A stretch of 64,000 nt of DNA from Alphaproteobacteria bacterium (GTDB lineage: Bacteria > Pseudomonadota > Alphaproteobacteria > DATDPM01), in contig JBGQJC010000008.1 in NCBI GenBank assembly GCA_041498815.1, positions 4,935 to 68,934 of the forward strand, given 5' to 3'. Below are positions 9,038 through 53,609 of the stretch, one piece after another. Positions within the stretch are counted from its first letter, which is position 1; the number at the start of each line of letters is the position of its first letter. The translations under genes and the position numbers were made by a program. The notes beneath the pieces were generated by a model. That model was not told the DNA's origin. It saw nothing but the letters and a program-made list of their open reading frames with translations, and made no database searches.

Positions 9038-9803
9038 GGGGACCGCGCGGGCGATCCGGCGCGGCCAGCGGAACGACATCGCCGTGATCGTCGTGGCGGT
9101 GATCGTGGCCGTGGGTATAAAGCGCCAGGCGCTGCGCCGCGAACGGCCCGAACAGGGCGAGATATTCCGGGTGGCGGCTTACCGCCTCGGGCCGGCCGGT
9201 GCAGCAGACGTGATGGTTGATGCAGACGACCTTGTCGGTCGCCGCCATCACGATATGGAGATCGTGGGACACCATCAGGATGCCGCAACGCTTGCGGTCG
9301 CGAAGCCCGGTGATGAGATCGTAAAGCTCCGACTGGCCGACGACGTCGACCCCCTGCACCGGTTCGTCGAGCACCAGAAGCTCGGGCTCGCGCAACAGCG
9401 CGCGCGCCAGAATCACGCGCCGGAGCTCGCCGCCGGAGAGATCGTGCAACTGCGCCCCCGCCACTTCCGCCGCGCCGACCTCGCCCAGAACCTTGGCGAT
9501 GCGGGAGCGATCGCGAATTCCGGAAAGCTCGAGAAACCGGCTTGCGGTCAAGGGCAGGATTTCGTCCACGGCGAGGGACTGGGGCATGTAGCCGATGCGA
9601 AGACCGGGCTTGGCCGTGACCCGCCCCTTCGATGCCAGCAGGAGCCCGAGGACCACGCGCACCAGCGTCGTCTTTCCGGCCCCGTTGGGGCCGATCAAAC
9701 TCACGATCTCGCCGGCATGCACCGACACCGAGACGTGGGTAAGCACGATGCGCCCGTTGAAACGAACGTCGATGCCTTCCGCTTTGAGCAGCCGCTCAGC
9801 CAC
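9030..9803 (-). CDS. znuC: Zinc ABC transporter ATP-binding subunit
   Basis: [26 protein letters not shown], His-rich tail. GTG start at 9803. Confidence 0.92.
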
Positions 9804-10362
9804 GGCGGCGCAGCACCTTGCGCCGGGCCTTAGGCTGGGCCTTGGGCTGGGCCTTGGGCCGGCAGCGCGGGCATAGGCCCAGGACCTCGACCGTCTGGCG
9901 CGCAACCGCGAACCCAAGGGTTCCAGCACCCCGCGCCACGGCCTTGCGAATACGGTTGTCATCGAGCTCCGCCGCCGCCCCGCATTGGCCGCAGATCAGG
10001 AACTGGCCGGCGTGCGATCCGCCGGGATCGGCGCAACCGACATAGGCGCTCTTCGAGGCGATGCGGTGGACCAGGCCCTGGTCCAACAGAAAATCGAGGG
10101 CGCGGTAAACCGTGGCCGGGGCGGCGAGTTTCTCGCGCCGCTTCAAGCCTGCCAGGATCGCGTAGGCGCCGGCCGGCTTGTGGCTGCGCCACACCAGCTC
10201 CAGCACGCGGCGGCGAATGGCGGTCAACCTCAATTTCCGGCGCGCGCAGACGCCGGCCGCTTCTCTGACCGCCGCCTCGACGCACGAGCCGTGGTCGTGG
10301 CCGCGGCGCGGGAAGGCCCGGAGTTTACGTTTCGACCGGTGCGGGCGGCGCATCTTACGCAT
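9796..10362 (-). CDS. zur: Zinc uptake regulator (Fur family)
   Basis: [19 protein letters not shown] and CPRC zinc sites. Heads znuCB; exact start uncertain. Confidence 0.88.
9825..9860. repeat. 3 x 12-bp tandem repeat encoding the Zur PKAQ tail
   Basis: gggccttaggct / gggccttgggct / gggccttgggcc. Confidence 0.7.
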
Positions 10363-10404
10363 GTTATGTTATAATATAGCATATAATATGTTATAACATA
10401 ACAT
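10361..10404. promoter_or_regulatory. Putative double Zur box between divergent zur-znuCB and znuA
   Basis: 18-bp arms ATGTTATGTTATAATATA (10361-10378) and TATGTTATAACATAACAT (10387-10404) are reverse complements at 17/18 positions. They resemble the proteobacterial Zur ATGTTATA...TATAACAT motif. Confidence 0.8.
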
Positions 10405-10450
10405 ATTATCGGCCGTGGCCGCCGAGACGAGCCGTTGGGATTCGCCAGAA

Positions 10451-11377
10451 ATGCCGGTCTGCCCCTTTCGTTCTGTTTTTGTGCTGGCGCTCCTATTTCC
10501 GCCGGCAGCGTTCTCCGCTCCCGCGGATCCGCCCCGGGTCGCGGTCACCATCAAACCGATCCACGGCCTGGTCGCCGCGGTCATGGACGGGGTGGCGAGC
10601 CCGCAGCTTTTGATCACGGGTGCCGATTCGCCCCACACCCATGCGCTGCGCCCCTCCGAGGCCCGCGTCCTCGAATCCGCCGATCTGGTGTTCTGGATCG
10701 GGCCGACGATGGAGACTTCGTTTGCCAAGCCCATCGCCGCCCTTGCCCGCGGCAAGGCCGCGAGCTTGATTGAATCTCCGGGGCTTCGTCTTTTGCCGGT
10801 GCGTGCCGCCGGAGACCAAGCGCCCCGGCCCGCGGGCGAGCCTCCGGGTTCGCTCGATCCCCATATCTGGCTCGATCCCGATAACGCCAAGGCGATCGCC
10901 CGGGCGGTGGCAAGCGCGCTCTCGGCCGTCGATCCGGGCCGCGGCGCGATTTATGCCGCGAATGCGGCCAAGGTCGAAGACCGCCTTGCCGCCCTCGATG
11001 CCGAAATCGAGGCGGAGCTCGCGTCCGTGCGCGACGTCCCCTTCATCACCTATCACGACGCCTACCAATATTTCGGCCGCCGCTATGGCTTTGCCTTCAC
11101 CGCCGCGGTGACGATTTCGCCCGAGCAGGCACCGGGCGCCCGGCGCATCCGGGAGCTGCGCGCCTTGATCGCTTCGCGGCACATCGCCTGCGTCTTCACC
11201 GAGCCGGAGTTCGAGCCGGCCCTGGCCCAGACCCTGGTGGCGGGAACGGCTGCTAAGATCGCGACACTCGATGCCGAACTCCGTCCCGATCTTCCCGCCG
11301 GACCCGATTTCTATTTCGATCTGATGCGGGGCATCGCCGACGATCTCCGCACCTGTCTTGCCCCACCGGGGCGTTGA
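10451..11377 (+). CDS. znuA: Zinc ABC transporter substrate-binding protein
   Basis: VTIKPIHGLV, SPHTHALRPS, DPHIWLDP, YHDAYQYF, VFTEPEF. Signal peptide. Confidence 0.9.
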   Translation: MPVCPFRSVFVLALLFPPAAFSAPADPPRVAVTIKPIHGLVAAVMDGVASPQLLITGADSPHTHALRPSEARVLESADLVFWIGPTMETSFAKPIAALARGKAASLIESPGLRLLPVRAAGDQAPRPAGEPPGSLDPHIWLDPDNAKAIARAVASALSAVDPGRGAIYAANAAKVEDRLAALDAEIEAELASVRDVPFITYHDAYQYFGRRYGFAFTAAVTISPEQAPGARRIRELRALIASRHIACVFTEPEFEPALAQTLVAGTAAKIATLDAELRPDLPAGPDFYFDLMRGIADDLRTCLAPPGR

Positions 11378-11405
11378 CAGGACGCGCCCAAACGGCGATC
11401 TAGCA
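11374..11405 (+). promoter_or_regulatory. Candidate sigma70 promoter upstream of hisI
   Basis: Perfect TTGACA at 11374-11379, 60 nt before the hisI ATG. The -10 element is weak. Confidence 0.4.
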
Positions 11406-11439
11406 GGCAAGGCCCGCGCGAGGCGGGCGGGAGACGGCC

Positions 11440-11853
11440 ATGACCCAAGAGACGGCCCGCGCCGCGGATGAAGTCGTGCGAGCCCTTGCCTTCGACGCCG
11501 ATGGCTTGGTGGCGGCGGTTGCCCAGCAGCACGACACCGCCGAGGTGCTGATGCTGGCCTGGATGAACCGCGAGGCGGTGACGCGCACGCTCGAGAGCGG
11601 CGAGGTCTGGTATTGGTCGCGGTCCCGCGGAAAGCTTTGGCGCAAGGGCGAAACCTCCGGCCAGACGCAAAAATTGGTGGAGCTGCGGGTCGATTGCGAC
11701 GGCGATGCGGTCCTGCTTCTGGTCGAACAAAAGGGCGTCGCCTGCCACACCGGAAGACGGAGCTGTTTCTTCCGGGCGCTTCGAGACGGGCGGCTTACCG
11801 AGATCGCCGAGGTCGAGGCCGATCCCAAGACGCTTTACGGAGACGATCGCTGA
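11440..11853 (+). CDS. hisI: Phosphoribosyl-AMP cyclohydrolase
   Basis: VLMLAWMN, YWSRSRGKLWRKGETSG, DCDGD, ACHTGRRSCF. Confidence 0.95.
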   Translation: MTQETARAADEVVRALAFDADGLVAAVAQQHDTAEVLMLAWMNREAVTRTLESGEVWYWSRSRGKLWRKGETSGQTQKLVELRVDCDGDAVLLLVEQKGVACHTGRRSCFFRALRDGRLTEIAEVEADPKTLYGDDR

Positions 11854-11873
11854 CATTGCGATTGCGGGGGCGC

Positions 11874-13538
11874 ATGGGACGGAACAAGCATCGAATGCGG
11901 TCATCTCATTCCCCGAACGGCCAGATCGAGCGGCGGCTTGGCGCCGCCTTCGTCTTGACCATCGTCTTCATGGCGATCGAGGCCGTGGGCGGGTGGTTTG
12001 CCGGCTCGCTCGCGCTTATGGCCGATGCCGGTCACATGCTGACCGATGCCCTGGCCCTGGCCCTGGCCTTCGCCGGATTCTGGTTCGGGCGGCGCCCGCC
12101 CGACCAGCGTCGCTCCTACGGTTACCGGCGCTTCGAAGTTTTGGCGGCCTGGATCAACGGACTGCTGCTGTCCGGCATTGCCCTGCTGATCATGGGTGAG
12201 GCGGCGCTCCGCCTGTTGACCCCGGTCGCGGTCAAGGCCCTGCCCATGCTGAGCATCGCCACCGCCGGTCTTGGCGTTAATCTGGTCACCCTGTGGTGGC
12301 TGAAGCGCGAGCCCTCCGACCACATCAATCTGCGCGGCGCGATCTTTCACGTGGTCGGCGATGTTTTGGGCTCGGCCGCGGCGATGCTGGCCGCGATCGT
12401 GATTCTGGCGACCGGTTGGATGCCGATCGACCCGTTGCTGTCGCTCGTCATCGCTTTGCTGATCCTGCGCAGCGCCTTCGCGCTGGTGCGCGGCGCCACC
12501 CACATCCTGCTCGAAGGAACCCACGACGACATCGACCTCGAGCGCATGCGCGAGGACGTCGCCAACAGCGTTCCAGAAATCACCGGGATACATCATATCC
12601 ATGCTTGGTCGTTGACCTCGGGCCACCCGATGCTGACGCTCCACGTCCAGCTCGCCGAAGGGGCCGACCGCGACACCGCCTTGCACGCGATCAAGGAGCG
12701 ACTGGCCACGGCGTTTCACATTTCTCATTCCGTGGTGCAGCTCGAATGCGGCCTCTGCCCCGACGCCAAGACTTCACTCCGTAACCATGCGGGCGCGGCG
12801 ATCCTGGTTGCGGCTGCCTTGCTGACGGGCTCTGCCGCAGCGGACGAGCGCCCCGTCACGGTGTTCGCGGCGGCGAGCCTGAACGGCGCATTGGACGCGG
12901 TATCAGTGGCCTATGCCGAAAGCGGAGGCGGCAAAGCGATCGCGTCCTATGCGGCATCGTCCGCGTTGGCCCGCCAGATCGAGAACGGCGCGCCGGCGGA
13001 CATCTTCATTTCGGCGAATGAAGAATGGATGGACTATGTGCAAACGCGAGGGCTTGTCGAAACCGGCAGCCGCGCCGATCTGCTGCGCAACCGCTTGGTG
13101 CTGATCGCACCCTTGGGCAAACCGCTCGATATTGCGATCGGCCCCGGATTTCCCTTGGCCAAGGCGTTGGGCGACGGCAGGCTTGCCATCGGCGATCCCG
13201 CGGGCGTACCAGCCGGAATCTACGCCAAGGCGGCGCTTGAACATCTGGGCGTCTGGAACGAGGTGGCGGACAAGCTGGCGCCCATGGCCGACGTACGCGC
13301 GGCACTTACCCTGGTCGAGCGCGGCGAAGTTCCGGCCGGAATCGTCTATGCGACCGACGCAGCCGCCAGCCGCGGGGTGACCGTGGCCGGCATTTTTCCG
13401 GACGGCACGCATCCGCCGATTATCTATCCGGCGGCGCTTCTGCCGGGCGCGGGTGCTGCGGCCCGTGATTTCTACGGGTTCCTGCGCGGCCCCGCCGCGC
13501 GCGCAATTTTCGAGCGATTCGGATTCGAGGGTATGTGA
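11874..13538 (+). CDS. In-frame fusion of a Zn-type CDF exporter (ZitB/CzcD-like) and the molybdate-binding protein ModA
   Basis: One 554-aa frame. CDF part: SLALMADAGHMLTD, SYGYRRFEVLAA, AIFHVVGD, HHIHAWSLT, HSVVQLE. Then a hydrophobic segment ending GSAAA. ModA part: VTVFAAASL, ASSALARQIENGAPADIFISA, VPAGIYAKAAL, DVRAAL, YATDA. Confidence 0.85.
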   Translation: MGRNKHRMRSSHSPNGQIERRLGAAFVLTIVFMAIEAVGGWFAGSLALMADAGHMLTDALALALAFAGFWFGRRPPDQRRSYGYRRFEVLAAWINGLLLSGIALLIMGEAALRLLTPVAVKALPMLSIATAGLGVNLVTLWWLKREPSDHINLRGAIFHVVGDVLGSAAAMLAAIVILATGWMPIDPLLSLVIALLILRSAFALVRGATHILLEGTHDDIDLERMREDVANSVPEITGIHHIHAWSLTSGHPMLTLHVQLAEGADRDTALHAIKERLATAFHISHSVVQLECGLCPDAKTSLRNHAGAAILVAAALLTGSAAADERPVTVFAAASLNGALDAVSVAYAESGGGKAIASYAASSALARQIENGAPADIFISANEEWMDYVQTRGLVETGSRADLLRNRLVLIAPLGKPLDIAIGPGFPLAKALGDGRLAIGDPAGVPAGIYAKAALEHLGVWNEVADKLAPMADVRAALTLVERGEVPAGIVYATDAAASRGVTVAGIFPDGTHPPIIYPAALLPGAGAAARDFYGFLRGPAARAIFERFGFEGM

Positions 13539-13542
13539 TCCC

Positions 13543-14247
13543 TTGTTTGCGCTGACACCCCTGGAGACGGAGGCGCTGCGCCTTAGTCTTCGCGTCGGCA
13601 TCTGGAGCGTGGCCGCGAGCCTCCCGCTCGGGATTATCGTTGCTTGGCTGCTGGCGCGCCGCGAGTTTCCCGGCAAGACCCTGGTCAACGGAATCGTCCA
13701 TCTGCCGCTTGTCCTGCCGCCCGTTGTCGTGGGCTACGCCCTATTGGTTTTGTTCGGAAGGCACGGCGCGATCGGCGCCTGGCTTTACGATACTTTCGGG
13801 ATCACGATCGCCTTCACCTGGCGGGGCGCCGCGATCGCCGCCGGAGTGATGGCGTTTCCCCTCATGGTGCGGGCGATCCGGCTTTCCATCGAATCGGTCG
13901 ACCGCAAGCTTGAAGCCGCCGCGCGGACGCTGGGTGCCGGTCCGCTCGACGTGTTTGCGACCATTACCCTGCCCTTGATCGTGCCCGGCATCATCACCGG
14001 CGTCATCCTGGCTTTTATCCGCGGCATCGGCGAATTCGGCGCGACCATCACCTTCGTCTCGAACATTCCCGGCCAGACGCGGACCCTTCCGCTCGCCCTG
14101 TACAGCCTGACGCAAACGCCGGGCGGCGATGCGGGCGCGATCCGGCTGGCGCTGATCGCGGTGGCGTTGGCGATGGCGGCGCTGGTTGCGTCCGAAGTGA
14201 TTGCCCGGCGTTTCAGCCGCCGCATTTCCGGCACGCCCCATGCTTGA
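13543..14247 (+). CDS. modB: Molybdate ABC transporter permease
   Basis: LPLVLPPVVVGY, LEAAARTLGA, GEFGATITFVSNIPG. TTG start inferred. Confidence 0.92.
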   Translation: MFALTPLETEALRLSLRVGIWSVAASLPLGIIVAWLLARREFPGKTLVNGIVHLPLVLPPVVVGYALLVLFGRHGAIGAWLYDTFGITIAFTWRGAAIAAGVMAFPLMVRAIRLSIESVDRKLEAAARTLGAGPLDVFATITLPLIVPGIITGVILAFIRGIGEFGATITFVSNIPGQTRTLPLALYSLTQTPGGDAGAIRLALIAVALAMAALVASEVIARRFSRRISGTPHA

Positions 14248-15349
14248 GATCGCGGCCAAGCGCGTGTTCGGAAATTTCGCGCTCGATGTCGCCTTCGCGG
14301 TCGAGCAAGGCGGCATCACGGCCTTGTTCGGCCGCTCGGGATCGGGCAAGACCTCCACCGTCAACCTGATCGCCGGCTTGGCCCGCCCCGATTGGGGTAC
14401 GGTCCGCCTCGACGGCCGGATCCTGTTCGATTCCGCCGCCCGAATCAACATGCCGCCGGAGCGGCGGCGTATCGGCTATGTGTTCCAGGAAGGGCGCCTG
14501 TTTCCGCATTTGTCGGTCGCGGGAAATCTCGCCTACGGCATGCGGCGCGCAGCGTCGGCGGCCCGCGCCGTTTCCTTCGACCACGTGGTGGAGCTTTTGG
14601 GGCTCGGCGTTTTCTTGCGCCGGCACGTGGCCGGTCTTTCCGGGGGCGAGAAGCAGCGGGTCGCGATCGGCCGCGCGCTTCTTTCCAGCCCGCGTCTGTT
14701 GCTGATGGACGAGCCCCTCGCCTCGCTCGACGCGCCGCGCAAGGCGGAGATCCTTCCCTTCATCGAACGGTTGCGGGACGAGCTCAAGATCCCGGTCGTT
14801 TATGTCAGCCACGCCATGGAAGAGATCGTGCGTCTCGCCGATCGTGTGGTTTTGCTGTCCGACGGCCGCATCGCCGCCACCGGCACGCTCGACGACGTCA
14901 TGGGCCGGCTCGATCTTCGCCCGCTCACGGGGCGCTACGAGGCGGGCGCGGTGATCACGGCAACCGTCACCGGCCATGACGAGGCCTTCGGCCTGACCCG
15001 ACTTTCGTTCCCGGGCGGCGTGCTTCAGGTTCCGGGACTGACGGTGGAAACGGGGGGACAGTTGCGGCTGCGCATCCGCGCCCGCGACGTCGCGTTGTCC
15101 GTGCAACAGCCGGTGGAAATCAGCATTCTCAACGTTTTTCCGGGCGTCGTTGCCGAAATTGCAACGGACGGCGTTTTTGCCGACGTGATCGTCAACATGG
15201 GCACGCCGATCTGGGCGCGCATCACCGCGCGCTCGCTCCATGATTTGAAGCTTCGTCAGGGGTCCCGGGTCTTCGCCCTCATCAAGGCGGTCGCGATCGA
15301 CGGGCACAGCCTGGGGCGCCGCGGCCGGCCGGCCGAACGCGACACCTAA
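14240..15349 (+). CDS. modC: Molybdate ABC transporter ATP-binding subunit with C-terminal TOBE region
   Basis: GRSGSGKT, VFQEGRLFPHLSV, LSGGEKQRVAIGRAL, ISILN, VFALIKAVAI. Confidence 0.92.
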   Translation: MLEIAAKRVFGNFALDVAFAVEQGGITALFGRSGSGKTSTVNLIAGLARPDWGTVRLDGRILFDSAARINMPPERRRIGYVFQEGRLFPHLSVAGNLAYGMRRAASAARAVSFDHVVELLGLGVFLRRHVAGLSGGEKQRVAIGRALLSSPRLLLMDEPLASLDAPRKAEILPFIERLRDELKIPVVYVSHAMEEIVRLADRVVLLSDGRIAATGTLDDVMGRLDLRPLTGRYEAGAVITATVTGHDEAFGLTRLSFPGGVLQVPGLTVETGGQLRLRIRARDVALSVQQPVEISILNVFPGVVAEIATDGVFADVIVNMGTPIWARITARSLHDLKLRQGSRVFALIKAVAIDGHSLGRRGRPAERDT

Positions 15350-15576
15350 GCGTTCCAAGGGCTTGCGGTTTGTAACGTAACCGCCATCAAACTTTTGAAC
15401 ATCAACGGTTTGTGTTATTTATGCCTGGAATCGCCGGATCGAAGCCCTTAGGCCGGGCGGGGTAACACCAACGGCGAAAGCGACATTTACAGGGGAACGG
15501 CCGCCGCCCGGGGCGGCCGCAAAGGGGCATGGCGGCATCAGGATCGCGGCGCACCGGGCCGAGTTGTTTTGCGGCA

Positions 15577-16815
15577 ATGAGCAGGCTCGGCTTCGCCGCC
15601 GCCTTCATGGCCACGTTGCTTGCCGCCACCGATGCGCGCGCCGGCAAGGACTTCGGCCCGGTGTCATATTTTCGCATGGCGCTCGGGCGCGAGCTGTTCG
15701 TCAGTCCCGGCGGTTCGCCCGGCCTCGAGCTTCAGAACCCTTCGGGGCAGCCGGACGTCGACCTGCTGTTCGGAGTCGATCTCAGCAAATACTGGGGACT
15801 CGAGTTCGCGGTCAATTACGTCAAGACCGATCTTCGGGCGACGGGCGACGGCAAGCTCGGCGATTTCTCGACCATCTCCGGAATCCTCCAGGCGCGCCTG
15901 CGCTATCCGATGCACAACGACCGTTTCGTTCCCTACGCCTTGTTCGGCGCGGGATACGGGTTCGGCGATTTCAGCGGACGCACGGATCCCATGACCTTTC
16001 CGATCGGCGGGCGCAGTTGGTCCAGCCAAGGCATTCTCGGCGGCGGCGCCGAATACTTCATCTACCGCAACCTCGCCTTCGGCCTCGAACTCCGGGACAC
16101 CTTCCTGTTCCGCCCCGAATTGACCGTCAACGGGCAGCAGCAGGCGATCAATGCGGATTCGGTCGCACTCACCGCCGGCCTGCGGGTCTATTTCGACAGC
16201 CCGCGCAGCGGCAAGCCGGGCGTGAACGCGCATCTGCCGCCGGCGGTGGATACCGCCAAGTTCCGTCCTTACATCATGGTGCGCGGCGGCCAGGCGCTGT
16301 TCACCGATACCAATGCGCTCAAATCCTCGAATATCGTGATCGACAGCACCTCGGGCCCGCTGTTGTCGGGCGGGTTCGGCGCGAACTTCAGCCGCTATTG
16401 GGGCGCCGAGTTTGCTTTTGAATACGCGCGCGCGCAAATACGAAACCCGACGAACAACGTAAAGATCAGCGGTTATCCGGTGTGGACGATGCTGGGTTTT
16501 GCCCGGCTGCGCTACCCGACGGAACACGACAAGGTGGTGCCATATCTGAGCTTGGGCGCCGGCCTGGGCTGGGCCGAAAAAGGCGACCCCGACATCCCGG
16601 AAACCGTGTCCGGTTTCCACAGCCCGCAGCAGACCACTTTCGTCGGTGCCGCAGCCGTGGGCGTCGATTACTTCGTCCAGGACGACGTGGCCCTGACGCT
16701 CGAGGCGCGCGACACCTTCAACTTTGCCACCGACGTGTCGCTGAACGGCGTGCCGCTCAAGCTCCATCCGGATTTCGTCTCGTTTTCCGCCGGCATCCGC
16801 GTCTTTTTCCAGTAG
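15577..16815 (+). CDS. Outer-membrane protein with two tandem OmpW/OmpA-type beta-barrel domains
   Basis: Signal peptide ending ARA. Internal duplication: YWGLEFA/YWGAEFA, ARLRYP..VPY twice, RDTF twice, AGLRVYF/AGIRVFF. Confidence 0.75.
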   Translation: MSRLGFAAAFMATLLAATDARAGKDFGPVSYFRMALGRELFVSPGGSPGLELQNPSGQPDVDLLFGVDLSKYWGLEFAVNYVKTDLRATGDGKLGDFSTISGILQARLRYPMHNDRFVPYALFGAGYGFGDFSGRTDPMTFPIGGRSWSSQGILGGGAEYFIYRNLAFGLELRDTFLFRPELTVNGQQQAINADSVALTAGLRVYFDSPRSGKPGVNAHLPPAVDTAKFRPYIMVRGGQALFTDTNALKSSNIVIDSTSGPLLSGGFGANFSRYWGAEFAFEYARAQIRNPTNNVKISGYPVWTMLGFARLRYPTEHDKVVPYLSLGAGLGWAEKGDPDIPETVSGFHSPQQTTFVGAAAVGVDYFVQDDVALTLEARDTFNFATDVSLNGVPLKLHPDFVSFSAGIRVFFQ

Positions 16816-18053: not shown

Positions 18054-19145
18054 ATGACCGCTTCGGCTCTTTACAACACGGATTTCGCGGGCGCGATCGC
18101 GCGCAACAAGCGCAACACGCTGCTGCTCTTTGCCGTGCTGATCATGATCGGCGCCGCGGCCGGCTACGTGCTCGGCTGGGGCATGGCCGTCATCGGCGAG
18201 ATTTCGCGCCTGCCGCCCGAAGCGGTGGAAAGGCTGACGGCAGGCGCGGTGCTTCTCGATCTCATCGGGCCGCCGCGGCCGGGCGCCCTGACCGGCGCCG
18301 CCATCGTCGCCGGCGGAGGATTTATTTGGGGTCTCATCACGCTTTTTGCGGGCGCCAGGATTCTCGCGGCCTTTGCCGGGGCCCGGCCCGCCAATCCGGA
18401 CAATCCCGCCGAAAAGCGATTCATCGACGTCGTCGAGGAAATGGCGCTGGCCGCCGGCGTGCCGCCGCCCCGCTCCATGGTCATCGAGACGCCGGCGCTC
18501 AATGCTTTCGCCACCGGATTTTCCCCGGACAGCGCGATGATCACGGCGACCACCGGACTCATCGAGGCTTGCCCGCGCGAGGAGTTGCAAGGCGTCGTCG
18601 GCCATGAAATGGGGCACGTCGCCGATTACGACGTGCGGTACACGACGGTGGTGGCGGCGATGGCGGGAATCATCGTGCTGGTGGCGCACGGGCTGCGCAA
18701 CATGGCCCGCTGGTCTCTTTACGGCGGCCGCTCGCGGTCGCGCGAGGGCGGCAAAGGCGGCGGATTGATTCTGCTGGTGATGCTGGTCGTTCTTGCCGTC
18801 GTCGGCATCTTGGCGCCGCTTGCCGCCCGCCTCGTGCAGATGGCGATCTCGCGTCAGCGGGAATATCTGGCGGATGCGAGCTCCGCCAAGCTCACCCGCA
18901 ACCCGATCGGGCTGATCCGCGCGCTCGAGCGCCTCGGGCGCGGCGATACGGCGATCGCGCACGACGATTCGCCGGTTGCGGCGCTCTGCATTGCCGAAGG
19001 CGAAGGCGCGGCCTTGAGCGGCATTTTTTCAACCCATCCGCCGATGGCCGACCGCATCGCGCGGCTGCGGAATCTGGGCGGCGACGTCGCCCAACCGGCC
19101 GACCGTCATCGACAACTCGCGGCTGGCGACCCCGGCAGGAATTGA
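18054..19145 (+). CDS. htpX: M48 family zinc metalloprotease (HtpX-like)
   Basis: NAFATG, HEMGH zinc motif, SRQREYLADA, FSTHPP. Follows lemA. Confidence 0.85.
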   Translation: MTASALYNTDFAGAIARNKRNTLLLFAVLIMIGAAAGYVLGWGMAVIGEISRLPPEAVERLTAGAVLLDLIGPPRPGALTGAAIVAGGGFIWGLITLFAGARILAAFAGARPANPDNPAEKRFIDVVEEMALAAGVPPPRSMVIETPALNAFATGFSPDSAMITATTGLIEACPREELQGVVGHEMGHVADYDVRYTTVVAAMAGIIVLVAHGLRNMARWSLYGGRSRSREGGKGGGLILLVMLVVLAVVGILAPLAARLVQMAISRQREYLADASSAKLTRNPIGLIRALERLGRGDTAIAHDDSPVAALCIAEGEGAALSGIFSTHPPMADRIARLRNLGGDVAQPADRHRQLAAGDPGRN

Positions 19146-19200
19146 ACCTGCGACCTAGTGCTTAGAAGGCACTCGCTCTATCCGACTGAGCTACGGGGTC
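19124..19200 (-). tRNA. tRNA-Arg (anticodon TCT)
   Basis: 77 nt, GACCCCG...CGGGGTC-GCCA. Anticodon arm AGTGC-CTTCTAA-GCACT, GGTTCAATTCC T-arm. Confidence 0.95.
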
Positions 19201-20208: not shown

Positions 20209-20285
<77 letters not shown>

Positions 20286-31086: not shown

Positions 31087-31161
31087 TGGCGACCCCAACG
31101 GGATTCGAACCCGTGTTGCCGGCTTGAAAAGCCGGAGTCCTAACCACTAGACGATGGGGTC
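31087..31161 (-). tRNA. tRNA-Glu (anticodon TTC)
   Basis: 75 nt, GACCCCA...TGGGGTC-GCCA. Anticodon arm CCGGC-TTTTCAA-GCCGG. Confidence 0.95.
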
Positions 31162-53532: not shown

Positions 53533-53609
53533 TGGTCGGAGCGGCGGGATTTGAACCCGCGACCCCCAGACCCCCAGTCTGATGCGCTACCAGGCTGCGC
53601 TACGCTCCG
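53533..53609 (-). tRNA. tRNA-Pro (anticodon GGG)
   Basis: 77 nt, CGGAGCG...CGCTCCG-ACCA. Anticodon loop CT-GGG-GG. Confidence 0.95.

Follow-up and report, generated by a model that had tools for sequence, protein, structure and literature searches.

A 64-kb stretch of alphaproteobacterial DNA assembled from a sediment metagenome (contig JBGQJC010000008.1; the whole of this stretch is referred to below as the window) contains a gene, CDF::ModA, in which a metal exporter of the cation diffusion facilitator (CDF) family and the molybdate-binding protein ModA are encoded as a single chain. Judged from the sequences assembled here, this fusion is real, inherited and under selection. Its product is probably a polyprotein, in which the signal peptide that once stood at the N-terminus of ModA, now internal, would export the ModA domain and signal peptidase I would release it.

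A single frame encodes an exporter and ModA

The reading frame is free of stops from the ATG at 11874 to the TGA at 13536-13538, giving a product of 554 aa according to both the open reading frame listing and the translation. Pfam resolves this product into Cation_efflux (aa 24-213; PF01545, E 1.2e-38), ZT_dimer (aa 218-291; PF16916, E 4.4e-09) and SBP_bac_11 (aa 328-552; E 5e-54). A preliminary description of the same DNA had proposed that one stop-free frame leads from a CDF into a ModA beginning at about 12843, that no in-frame ATG lies near the junction and that modB and modC follow directly, and had asked for a search with these three profiles, all of which matched. Its other points hold as well: the first residue of the mature ModA part, D324, is encoded from 12843, the fused frame has no ATG between M252 and M386, and modB and modC, immediately downstream, both pass NCBIfam equivalog cut-offs. 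AlphaFold2, supplied with an alignment of 17 sequences, modelled the CDF and ModA as two separate, confident domains within the fused protein, with a mean predicted local distance difference test score (pLDDT) of 78.7.

The CDF half carries HMLTD (aa 54-58; H54/D58) and HVVGD (aa 159-163; H159/D163), both of which are invariant in all 23 aligned relatives. On these motifs it is of the HxxxD/HxxxD type with a predicted specificity for Zn/Co/Cd (ZitB/CzcD-like), the class to which the preliminary description had assigned it. Its best NCBIfam match is ZitB (NF002923), at 294.3 bits and under the 408-bit cut-off, and the CDF superfamily model TIGR01297 is passed at 260 bits (cut-off 82); by these models the CDF half is a relative of ZitB, not an equivalog. 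AlphaFold2 places six long helices at aa 14-43, 46-71, 81-115, 122-143, 151-180 and 185-213, followed by a C-terminal domain of alpha-beta-beta-alpha-beta topology, and the nearest solved structures belong to the ZnT/SLC30 family (ZnT8, ZnT3/4, SLC30A10). By analogy with the family as a whole, both the N- and the C-terminus would be cytoplasmic. The CDF part ends in HSVVQLECGLCPD, with C295-P296-D297 (CPD) invariant.

The ModA half is, by curated models, a bona fide ModA. It passes the NCBIfam equivalogs NF007958 (268.7 against a cut-off of 253) and TIGR01256 (181.2 against 62.5), matches E. coli ModA across the whole fold including the signal peptide (E 2e-68), and was modelled by AlphaFold2 with a pLDDT mostly above 90. 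The motifs VFAAAS, ASS, VPAGIYAK and IVY.TDA, which we take to carry the oxyanion ligands in E. coli ModA, are invariant in the alignment. Binding of molybdate or tungstate is the predicted function of this half.

The fusion is inherited and restricted to one clade

Relatives were sought among 5.8 billion proteins, which yielded 17 clusters (P0001-P0017, formed at 90% identity; P numbers denote clusters and L numbers loci) with all four domains in one protein. These are 59-99% identical and 544-561 aa long. Independent coverage of positions 12500-13100 was available from Logan contigs of four different samples and studies. The four assemblies differ by 2-18 substitutions each, and none has an indel or a stop at the junction. 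Most of the variation is silent: read in the fused frame, 15 of the 22 variant sites are synonymous. The sites are spread over the end of the CDF, the linker and ModA. This pattern of substitution shows the mark of purifying selection on both halves. Since the fused clusters, the indel-free assemblies and the mostly synonymous variation point the same way, we conclude that the fusion is inherited and not an artefact. Both the check across the junction and the search for fused relatives had been called for in the preliminary description, which also considered that relatives might have two separate genes and no second fusion; many fused cases exist.

The junction does contain a semblance of a gene boundary, namely an out-of-frame TAA (12782) followed by an out-of-frame ATG (12787, reading MRARRSWLRLPC to a stop). 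We judged this pair to be a product of chance, because in three of the four assemblies a substitution destroys the TAA without changing the fused protein, and because the basic n-region of the relatives' linkers lies in the fused frame. The ATG at 12787 (MRARRS...) was likewise rejected as a frameshifted start of ModA, given this placement of the n-region and the lack of indels in the assemblies.

The fused form is rare. An exhaustive HMMER scan of 1.84 billion representatives at 50% identity found one fused cluster (P0015), all other strong matches being either a CDF or a ModA and never both. Among GTDB species representatives the fusion occurs only in two uncultured alphaproteobacterial metagenome-assembled genomes (L001, L002). 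The next-best CDFs in GTDB (at most 56% identity) have no adjoining mod gene, and the metagenome scan gave the same picture; no mod gene stands beside a CDF in about 150 outgroup loci outside the clade. Nor were a CDF and modA found as adjacent separate genes in 80 GTDB loci, 80 metagenome loci or context look-ups. Taken together, the scans point to the fusion having arisen once, within one uncultured clade of Alphaproteobacteria. Literature searches found no description of a CDF-ModA fusion, in keeping with the earlier statement that no described example was known.

Current annotation conceals the arrangement. NCBI labels the fused proteins as 'molybdate ABC transporter substrate-binding protein' alone, and IMG lists them solely as 'cobalt-zinc-cadmium efflux system protein', so inventories of metal transport miss one function in either pipeline. 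The lesson for annotation is that such inventories are incomplete for genomes with the fused gene.

The linker corresponds to the signal peptide of ModA

Between the two halves the protein reads AKTSLRNH-AGAAILVAAALLTGSAAA and then DERPVTVFAAASL. The linker can be divided into an n-region (AKTSLRNH), a hydrophobic h-region (AGAAILVAAALLTG, about 14 residues) and a c-region (SAAA). HMMER aligned NHAGAAILVAAALLTGSAAA followed by DERPVTVFAAASL in the window with NLFAGAALSFAVAGNALA followed by DEGKITVFAAASL in the E. coli ModA precursor (4xxu_A), and residue 1 of the crystallised mature E. coli protein (1amf_A) aligns to D324, such that the boundary between AAA and DERPVTVF coincides with the start of mature E. 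coli ModA. On the strength of these two alignments, the segment earlier viewed as a seventh transmembrane helix is, by homology, ModA's own ancestral N-terminal Sec signal peptide, now internal. The preliminary description had recognised it as an in-to-out hydrophobic segment with an AxA site, and that AxA lies at the homologous E. coli maturation site.

The same features recur across the fused family. In all 17 linkers an n-region that is net-positive or His-rich precedes a short hydrophobic core; a Pro or Gly usually stands 4-6 residues ahead of the site, which itself fits small-x-small and has acidic residues after it. When compared with the signal peptides of 73 free ModA homologues by four simple measures, namely uncharged length, n-region charge, peak hydropathy and distance to the first beta-strand, the linkers lie inside the range of the free forms. 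Their uncharged stretch comprises 20-32 residues, and the putative cleavage site is only 0-9 residues away from the first buried beta-strand. No other segment of the alignment is as poorly conserved as the linker, which varies in length and always remains in frame. AlphaFold2 left aa 295-324 unstructured (pLDDT < 50) and did not pack them as a seventh helix of the CDF. The preliminary description had left open whether the product is a cleaved polyprotein or a tethered ModA; the likeness of the linker to free ModA signal peptides, with which it is homologous, favours the former.

Neither a lipobox Cys nor a twin-arginine motif is conserved across the 17 linkers, and the lipoprotein and Tat routes of export were rejected on this ground. 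As a separate observation, the linkers of P0005 and P0009 contain a His-rich stretch (HRAHHH, HPAHPHVH) between CPD and the hydrophobic core (alignment columns 301-312). It has few or no Lys/Arg and doubles as the n-region of the signal peptide, and it resembles the His-rich tails that are common at the termini of CDFs.

Relatives have lost either half

Several relatives retain the syntenic slot with only one of the two halves. Loci of the form hisI-CDF-modB-modC have lost ModA at four different breakpoints, that is, by at least four independent deletions. Comparison with the DNA of fused sisters (L086 with L087, 88% identity; L085 with L081, 82%) shows clean deletions of about 0.65-0.77 kb. 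In L085 the deletion begins right after CPD and the linker helix is lost, as it is in L169; L086 and L092 keep the helix, with a frameshifted tail; and L093 has an in-frame deletion that leaves the helix and the last residues of ModA. At least 12 contigs, the longest of 51 kb, carry one such form, P0020, which is therefore not an accident of assembly. The ModA-loss forms are nested among the fused ones in the CDF tree. Their modB and modC look intact, and would thus be served by another binding protein encoded elsewhere or constitute an orphan ModBC.

The opposite loss gives loci of the form hisI-modA-modB-modC, in which the free modA (L171, L172/L173, L174) has a Shine-Dalgarno sequence, an ATG and a canonical N-terminal signal peptide. 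A tree of ModA domains, rooted with other free ModAs, nests these lineages at two places among the fused proteins: P0121 groups with fused P0012-14 in 190 of 200 bootstraps, and P0270-74 with fused P0002-6/P0009 in 169 of 200, while monophyly of the fused proteins alone was recovered in none of the 200. Trees of the flanking genes agree on this placement. The clearest case is L171, which is about 82% identical to fused L001 in hisI, in the spacer (including the Shine-Dalgarno and start context) and in mature modA, and differs from it only by the CDF body of about 0.86 kb. These identities suggest that the CDF body was removed by an in-frame deletion and that modA took over the CDF start site; the P0121 signal peptide may combine the first transmembrane helix of the CDF with the linker. 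Clear homology of the spacer downstream of hisI was seen only in L171; the spacers of L172 and L174 did not align clearly with those of fused loci.

These sequences are most economically explained by a single fusion event, after which deletions split the gene repeatedly, removing ModA in some lineages and the CDF in others. The AxA-type site was kept while the genes were fused, and the free-ModA descendants, nested among fused lineages, have the same c-region. The clade is a compact natural experiment, in which one syntenic slot holds the fused gene, at least four forms that have lost ModA or two that lack the CDF, and it shows that a fused gene can endure over long periods when its halves are not functionally coupled.

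A probable polyprotein with an internal signal peptide

We infer the following topology, translocation and cleavage for the fused product. The ribosome would make one chain, of which the CDF would insert into the inner membrane, leaving its C-terminal domain on the cytoplasmic side. The basic n-region of the linker would remain inside, the h-region of about 14 residues would enter SecYEG in the in-to-out direction, and the ModA domain would be translocated through SecYEG. Cleavage by signal peptidase I after SAAA (aa 323) would then yield a soluble ModA beginning with DERPV..., free to serve the ModB2C2 encoded immediately downstream, and would leave the CDF with the signal peptide as a dispensable, C-terminal seventh helix. 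That the CDF does not need this helix follows from the two ModA-loss variants (L085, L169) that dropped it. The two products would work independently of one another, with the fusion forcing their equimolar synthesis and making the translation of ModA depend on the CDF start site.

Consistent with this last point, none of the in-frame ATG, GTG or TTG codons that lie between the end of the CDF and ModA in eight fused DNAs has a Shine-Dalgarno-like motif in the 20 nt before it, and none keeps its position from one DNA to another. By contrast, a clear Shine-Dalgarno precedes modB in the window and the free modA of related loci. On this evidence ModA would have no initiation of its own.

Several considerations weigh against processing of this kind. 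Small-x-small motifs arise readily in Ala-rich, high-GC sequence, and the measures by which the linkers were compared are simple. The 14 or so residues that lead from the final strand of the CDF (aa 292) to the h-region would have to bridge the distance from the C-terminal domain to the membrane. Substrate-binding proteins are normally in excess over the membrane components of their transporters, so that an equimolar polyprotein looks suboptimal. Finally, the repeated deletions may reflect a slight fitness cost of the fusion, or a ModA that these organisms can do without.

Alternatives to cleavage and independent function

An unlikely, though the best surviving, alternative to the cleaved polyprotein is that the linker is a permanent seventh transmembrane helix, holding ModA on the periplasmic face of the CDF and letting it feed ModBC while tethered. 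Such a protein would be comparable to those binding proteins of Gram-positives and archaea that are anchored by a lipid or a helix. The 20-32 uncharged residues would span the membrane if the c-region is counted, and three ModA-deleted variants (L086, L092, L093) keep the helix. However, two others dropped it, AlphaFold2 did not pack it against the CDF, and the 0-9 residues before the first strand would make a very short tether. The signal-peptidase pattern is moreover kept at the E. coli ModA maturation site in a linker that is otherwise poorly conserved, and the same c-region is found in the free-ModA descendants. We consider it improbable that the chain stays uncleaved as a seven-helix bifunctional protein, with ModA mounted on the CDF dimer in a CDF-ModBC supercomplex or gating cation efflux. 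If true, this form would physically link a secondary exporter to a primary importer, which is not known to have been seen before.

Another way to view the fusion is as an arrangement selected to link the efflux of Zn (or Co/Cd) with the uptake of molybdate or tungstate, whether stoichiometrically or physically. The persistence of the fusion over divergence down to 59% identity speaks for this, as does the adjoining zinc cluster (zur, znuABC and hisI) with its Zur-box-like sites. Against it stand at least four independent deletions of ModA in which CDF-modB-modC was kept, two nested lineages that keep modA-modBC without the CDF, the lack of any mod gene beside the CDF in the outgroup loci, and the single fused cluster among the 50%-identity representatives. 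To our knowledge, there is no biochemical link between Zn efflux and Mo uptake. We therefore regard selection for coupling as very improbable. The 1:1 coupling of cation efflux to molybdate/tungstate uptake proposed in the preliminary description is unsupported, because each half survives without the other in relatives; equimolar synthesis is a consequence of the fusion, and nothing found here marks it as the purpose.

It is more doubtful still that ModA is made separately from an internal start, with the fusion protein as a by-product. Two in-frame GTG codons (12732 and 12735) are present in the window, the first of which the preliminary description had singled out as a possible start of ModA. 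Neither this codon nor any other candidate in the eight fused genes has a Shine-Dalgarno-like motif within 20 nt upstream or is conserved in position: the GTG at 12732 is the codon for Val287, which is conserved as part of the CDF motif HSV(V/I)Q, and in L082 and L087 this codon is not GTG. As there is no stop codon, the full-length chain would be made anyway, even with internal initiation. Least credible of all, to the point of being negligible, is that a sequencing or assembly error or a recent frameshifted pseudogene joined two normal genes, since the ATG and TAA that could hint at a lost gene boundary are set against four independent assemblies without an indel (three of them without the TAA), 17 diverged clusters fused at the same point, and two halves that both pass curated family cut-offs and show purifying selection.

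Genomic neighbourhood and candidate control elements

The order znuA-hisI-[CDF::modA]-modB-modC is the same in L001, L002, L081, L082, L084 and L087. The last four of these also match the window in having znuB-znuC-zur on the strand opposite to znuA-hisI-fusion-modB-modC. The features of the locus and the corresponding positions in relatives that lost one half are collected in Table 1.

Table 1. Positions of the fused gene, its parts and neighbouring features in the window, and of the loci that lost one half
Feature	Position	Strand	Basis or remark
Fused gene CDF::ModA	11874..13538	+	554 codons and TGA; one open frame
CDF moiety, aa 1-297	11874..12764	+	Pfam, NCBIfam, AlphaFold2, motifs
Linker, aa 298-323 (26 residues)	12765..12842	+	E. 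coli ModA alignment; n/h/c features
Mature ModA moiety, aa 324-554 (DERPVTVFAAASL...)	12843..13535	+	NCBIfam, E. coli ModA match, AlphaFold2
modB	13543..14247	+	NCBIfam ModB equivalog, 356 against 262
modC (ABC_tran and TOBE)	14240..15349	+	TIGR02142, 451 against 285; Pfam
Outer-membrane beta-barrel gene (OMP_b-brl), 428 aa	15529-16815		Directly after modC
hisI (phosphoribosyl-AMP cyclohydrolase)	11440..11853	+	Pfam PRA-CH; NCBIfam equivalog
TTGC-N2-TTGC direct repeat, hisI-CDF spacer	11856..11865	+	TTGCCGGTTGC in relatives
znuA-like zinc-binding protein gene	10415..11377	+	Pfam ZnuA, 1.6e-62
AT-rich Zur-box-like palindromes	10355..10410	.	ATGTTATAATAT at 10366, ATGTTATAACAT at 10388
Four tRNA genes	19127-19200, 20212-20285, 31090-31161, 53536-53609	minus	Sole Rfam matches in the window
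ModA-loss loci	L085 1247-2186; L086 4181-5212; L092 3001-4005; L093 2085-2961; L169 394-1386		hisI-CDF-modB-modC
CDF-loss loci	L171 359-1168; L172 6001-6780; L174 6001-6795		hisI-modA-modB-modC

hisI ends 20 nt upstream of the fused gene, and its position between znuA and the fusion is kept in all relatives. HisI is a zinc-dependent enzyme. Paralogues of hisI have been described as members of the Zur regulon (PMC2770081). The Zur-box-like palindromes lie between the divergent zur-znuCB and znuA, in an AT-rich stretch of a GC-rich genome; they are the only two matches to this motif in the window, and the motif is found upstream of znuA in most relatives.

The spacer between hisI and the CDF contains a direct repeat of TTGC that recurs, with a spacing of 2 or 3 nt, in L001 (1093), L081 (5946), L086 (4124), L087 (4944) and L171 (303), where it is the sole match or one of very few per locus. 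Given its conservation in this spacer, the fused gene may have a control element of its own, and the repeat may be a candidate promoter or operator that drives the gene independently of znuA-hisI. Scans for promoters and terminators over positions 9500-16000 gave counts no different from those in shuffled sequence. Rfam found no rRNA and no riboswitch in the window, and no molybdenum cofactor (Moco) riboswitch near the locus.

Downstream of the fusion, modB has a TTG start 5 nt past the modA stop with a Shine-Dalgarno GAGGG 12-16 nt upstream of it, and ModB of relatives aligns from residue 1. The ATG start of modC overlaps the end of modB by 8 nt, with ModC of relatives aligning from query residue 12-14. 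The beta-barrel gene is kept after modC in L081, L084 and L085, and not in L087, L172 or L174. A role of its product as an outer-membrane channel for oxyanions is conceivable.

Comparison with known systems

The fused ModA shares with E. coli ModA (PDB 1AMF/1WOD/4XXU) the whole fold, the signal peptide and the position of modB and modC directly downstream. Unlike E. coli ModA, it lacks its own start codon and ribosome-binding site, and the signal peptide comes after a membrane protein of 297 residues instead of standing at the N-terminus. CDFs of the ZitB/CzcD type are Zn/Co/Cd-H+ antiporters with eukaryotic relatives in the ZnT/SLC30 family. The CDF half has in common with them the Cation_efflux and ZT_dimer domains, six predicted transmembrane helices with HxxxD on the second and fifth, and an alpha-beta C-terminal domain that would be cytoplasmic. 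In contrast to these proteins, its tail has no stop codon and runs on into another protein, and it would end in an extra in-to-out helix.

Binding proteins joined to transporters are known from OpuA and GlnPQ, in which the binding domain is joined to its cognate permease, remains on it and supplies it with substrate. CDF::ModA is like these systems in that a binding protein is covalently joined to a membrane transporter via a hydrophobic segment. It is unlike them in that the partner of ModA is a secondary exporter of another family, the cognate ModB being encoded by a separate gene. The fusion is probably not a new transport mechanism.

A closer parallel to the polyprotein proposed here is FbcH of Bradyrhizobium japonicum, a cytochrome b/c1 precursor that, in work of 1991 attributed to Thony-Meyer, James and Hennecke, was reportedly shown by experiment to be processed into two proteins. 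Like CDF::ModA, fbcH belongs to an alphaproteobacterium and joins a polytopic inner-membrane protein, an internal signal peptide and a periplasmically exposed protein in one frame. Cleavage of FbcH rests on that experimental work, whereas that of CDF::ModA is one that we infer. The products of fbcH are subunits of one complex, for which equimolar synthesis makes functional sense, whereas the CDF and ModA belong to unrelated transport systems. Thus, CDF::ModA would be a second natural example of a bacterial membrane/periplasmic polyprotein with an internal signal peptide, here with unrelated partners, and would lend itself to studying how SecYEG and signal peptidase I deal with a signal peptide located behind a large cytoplasmic domain.

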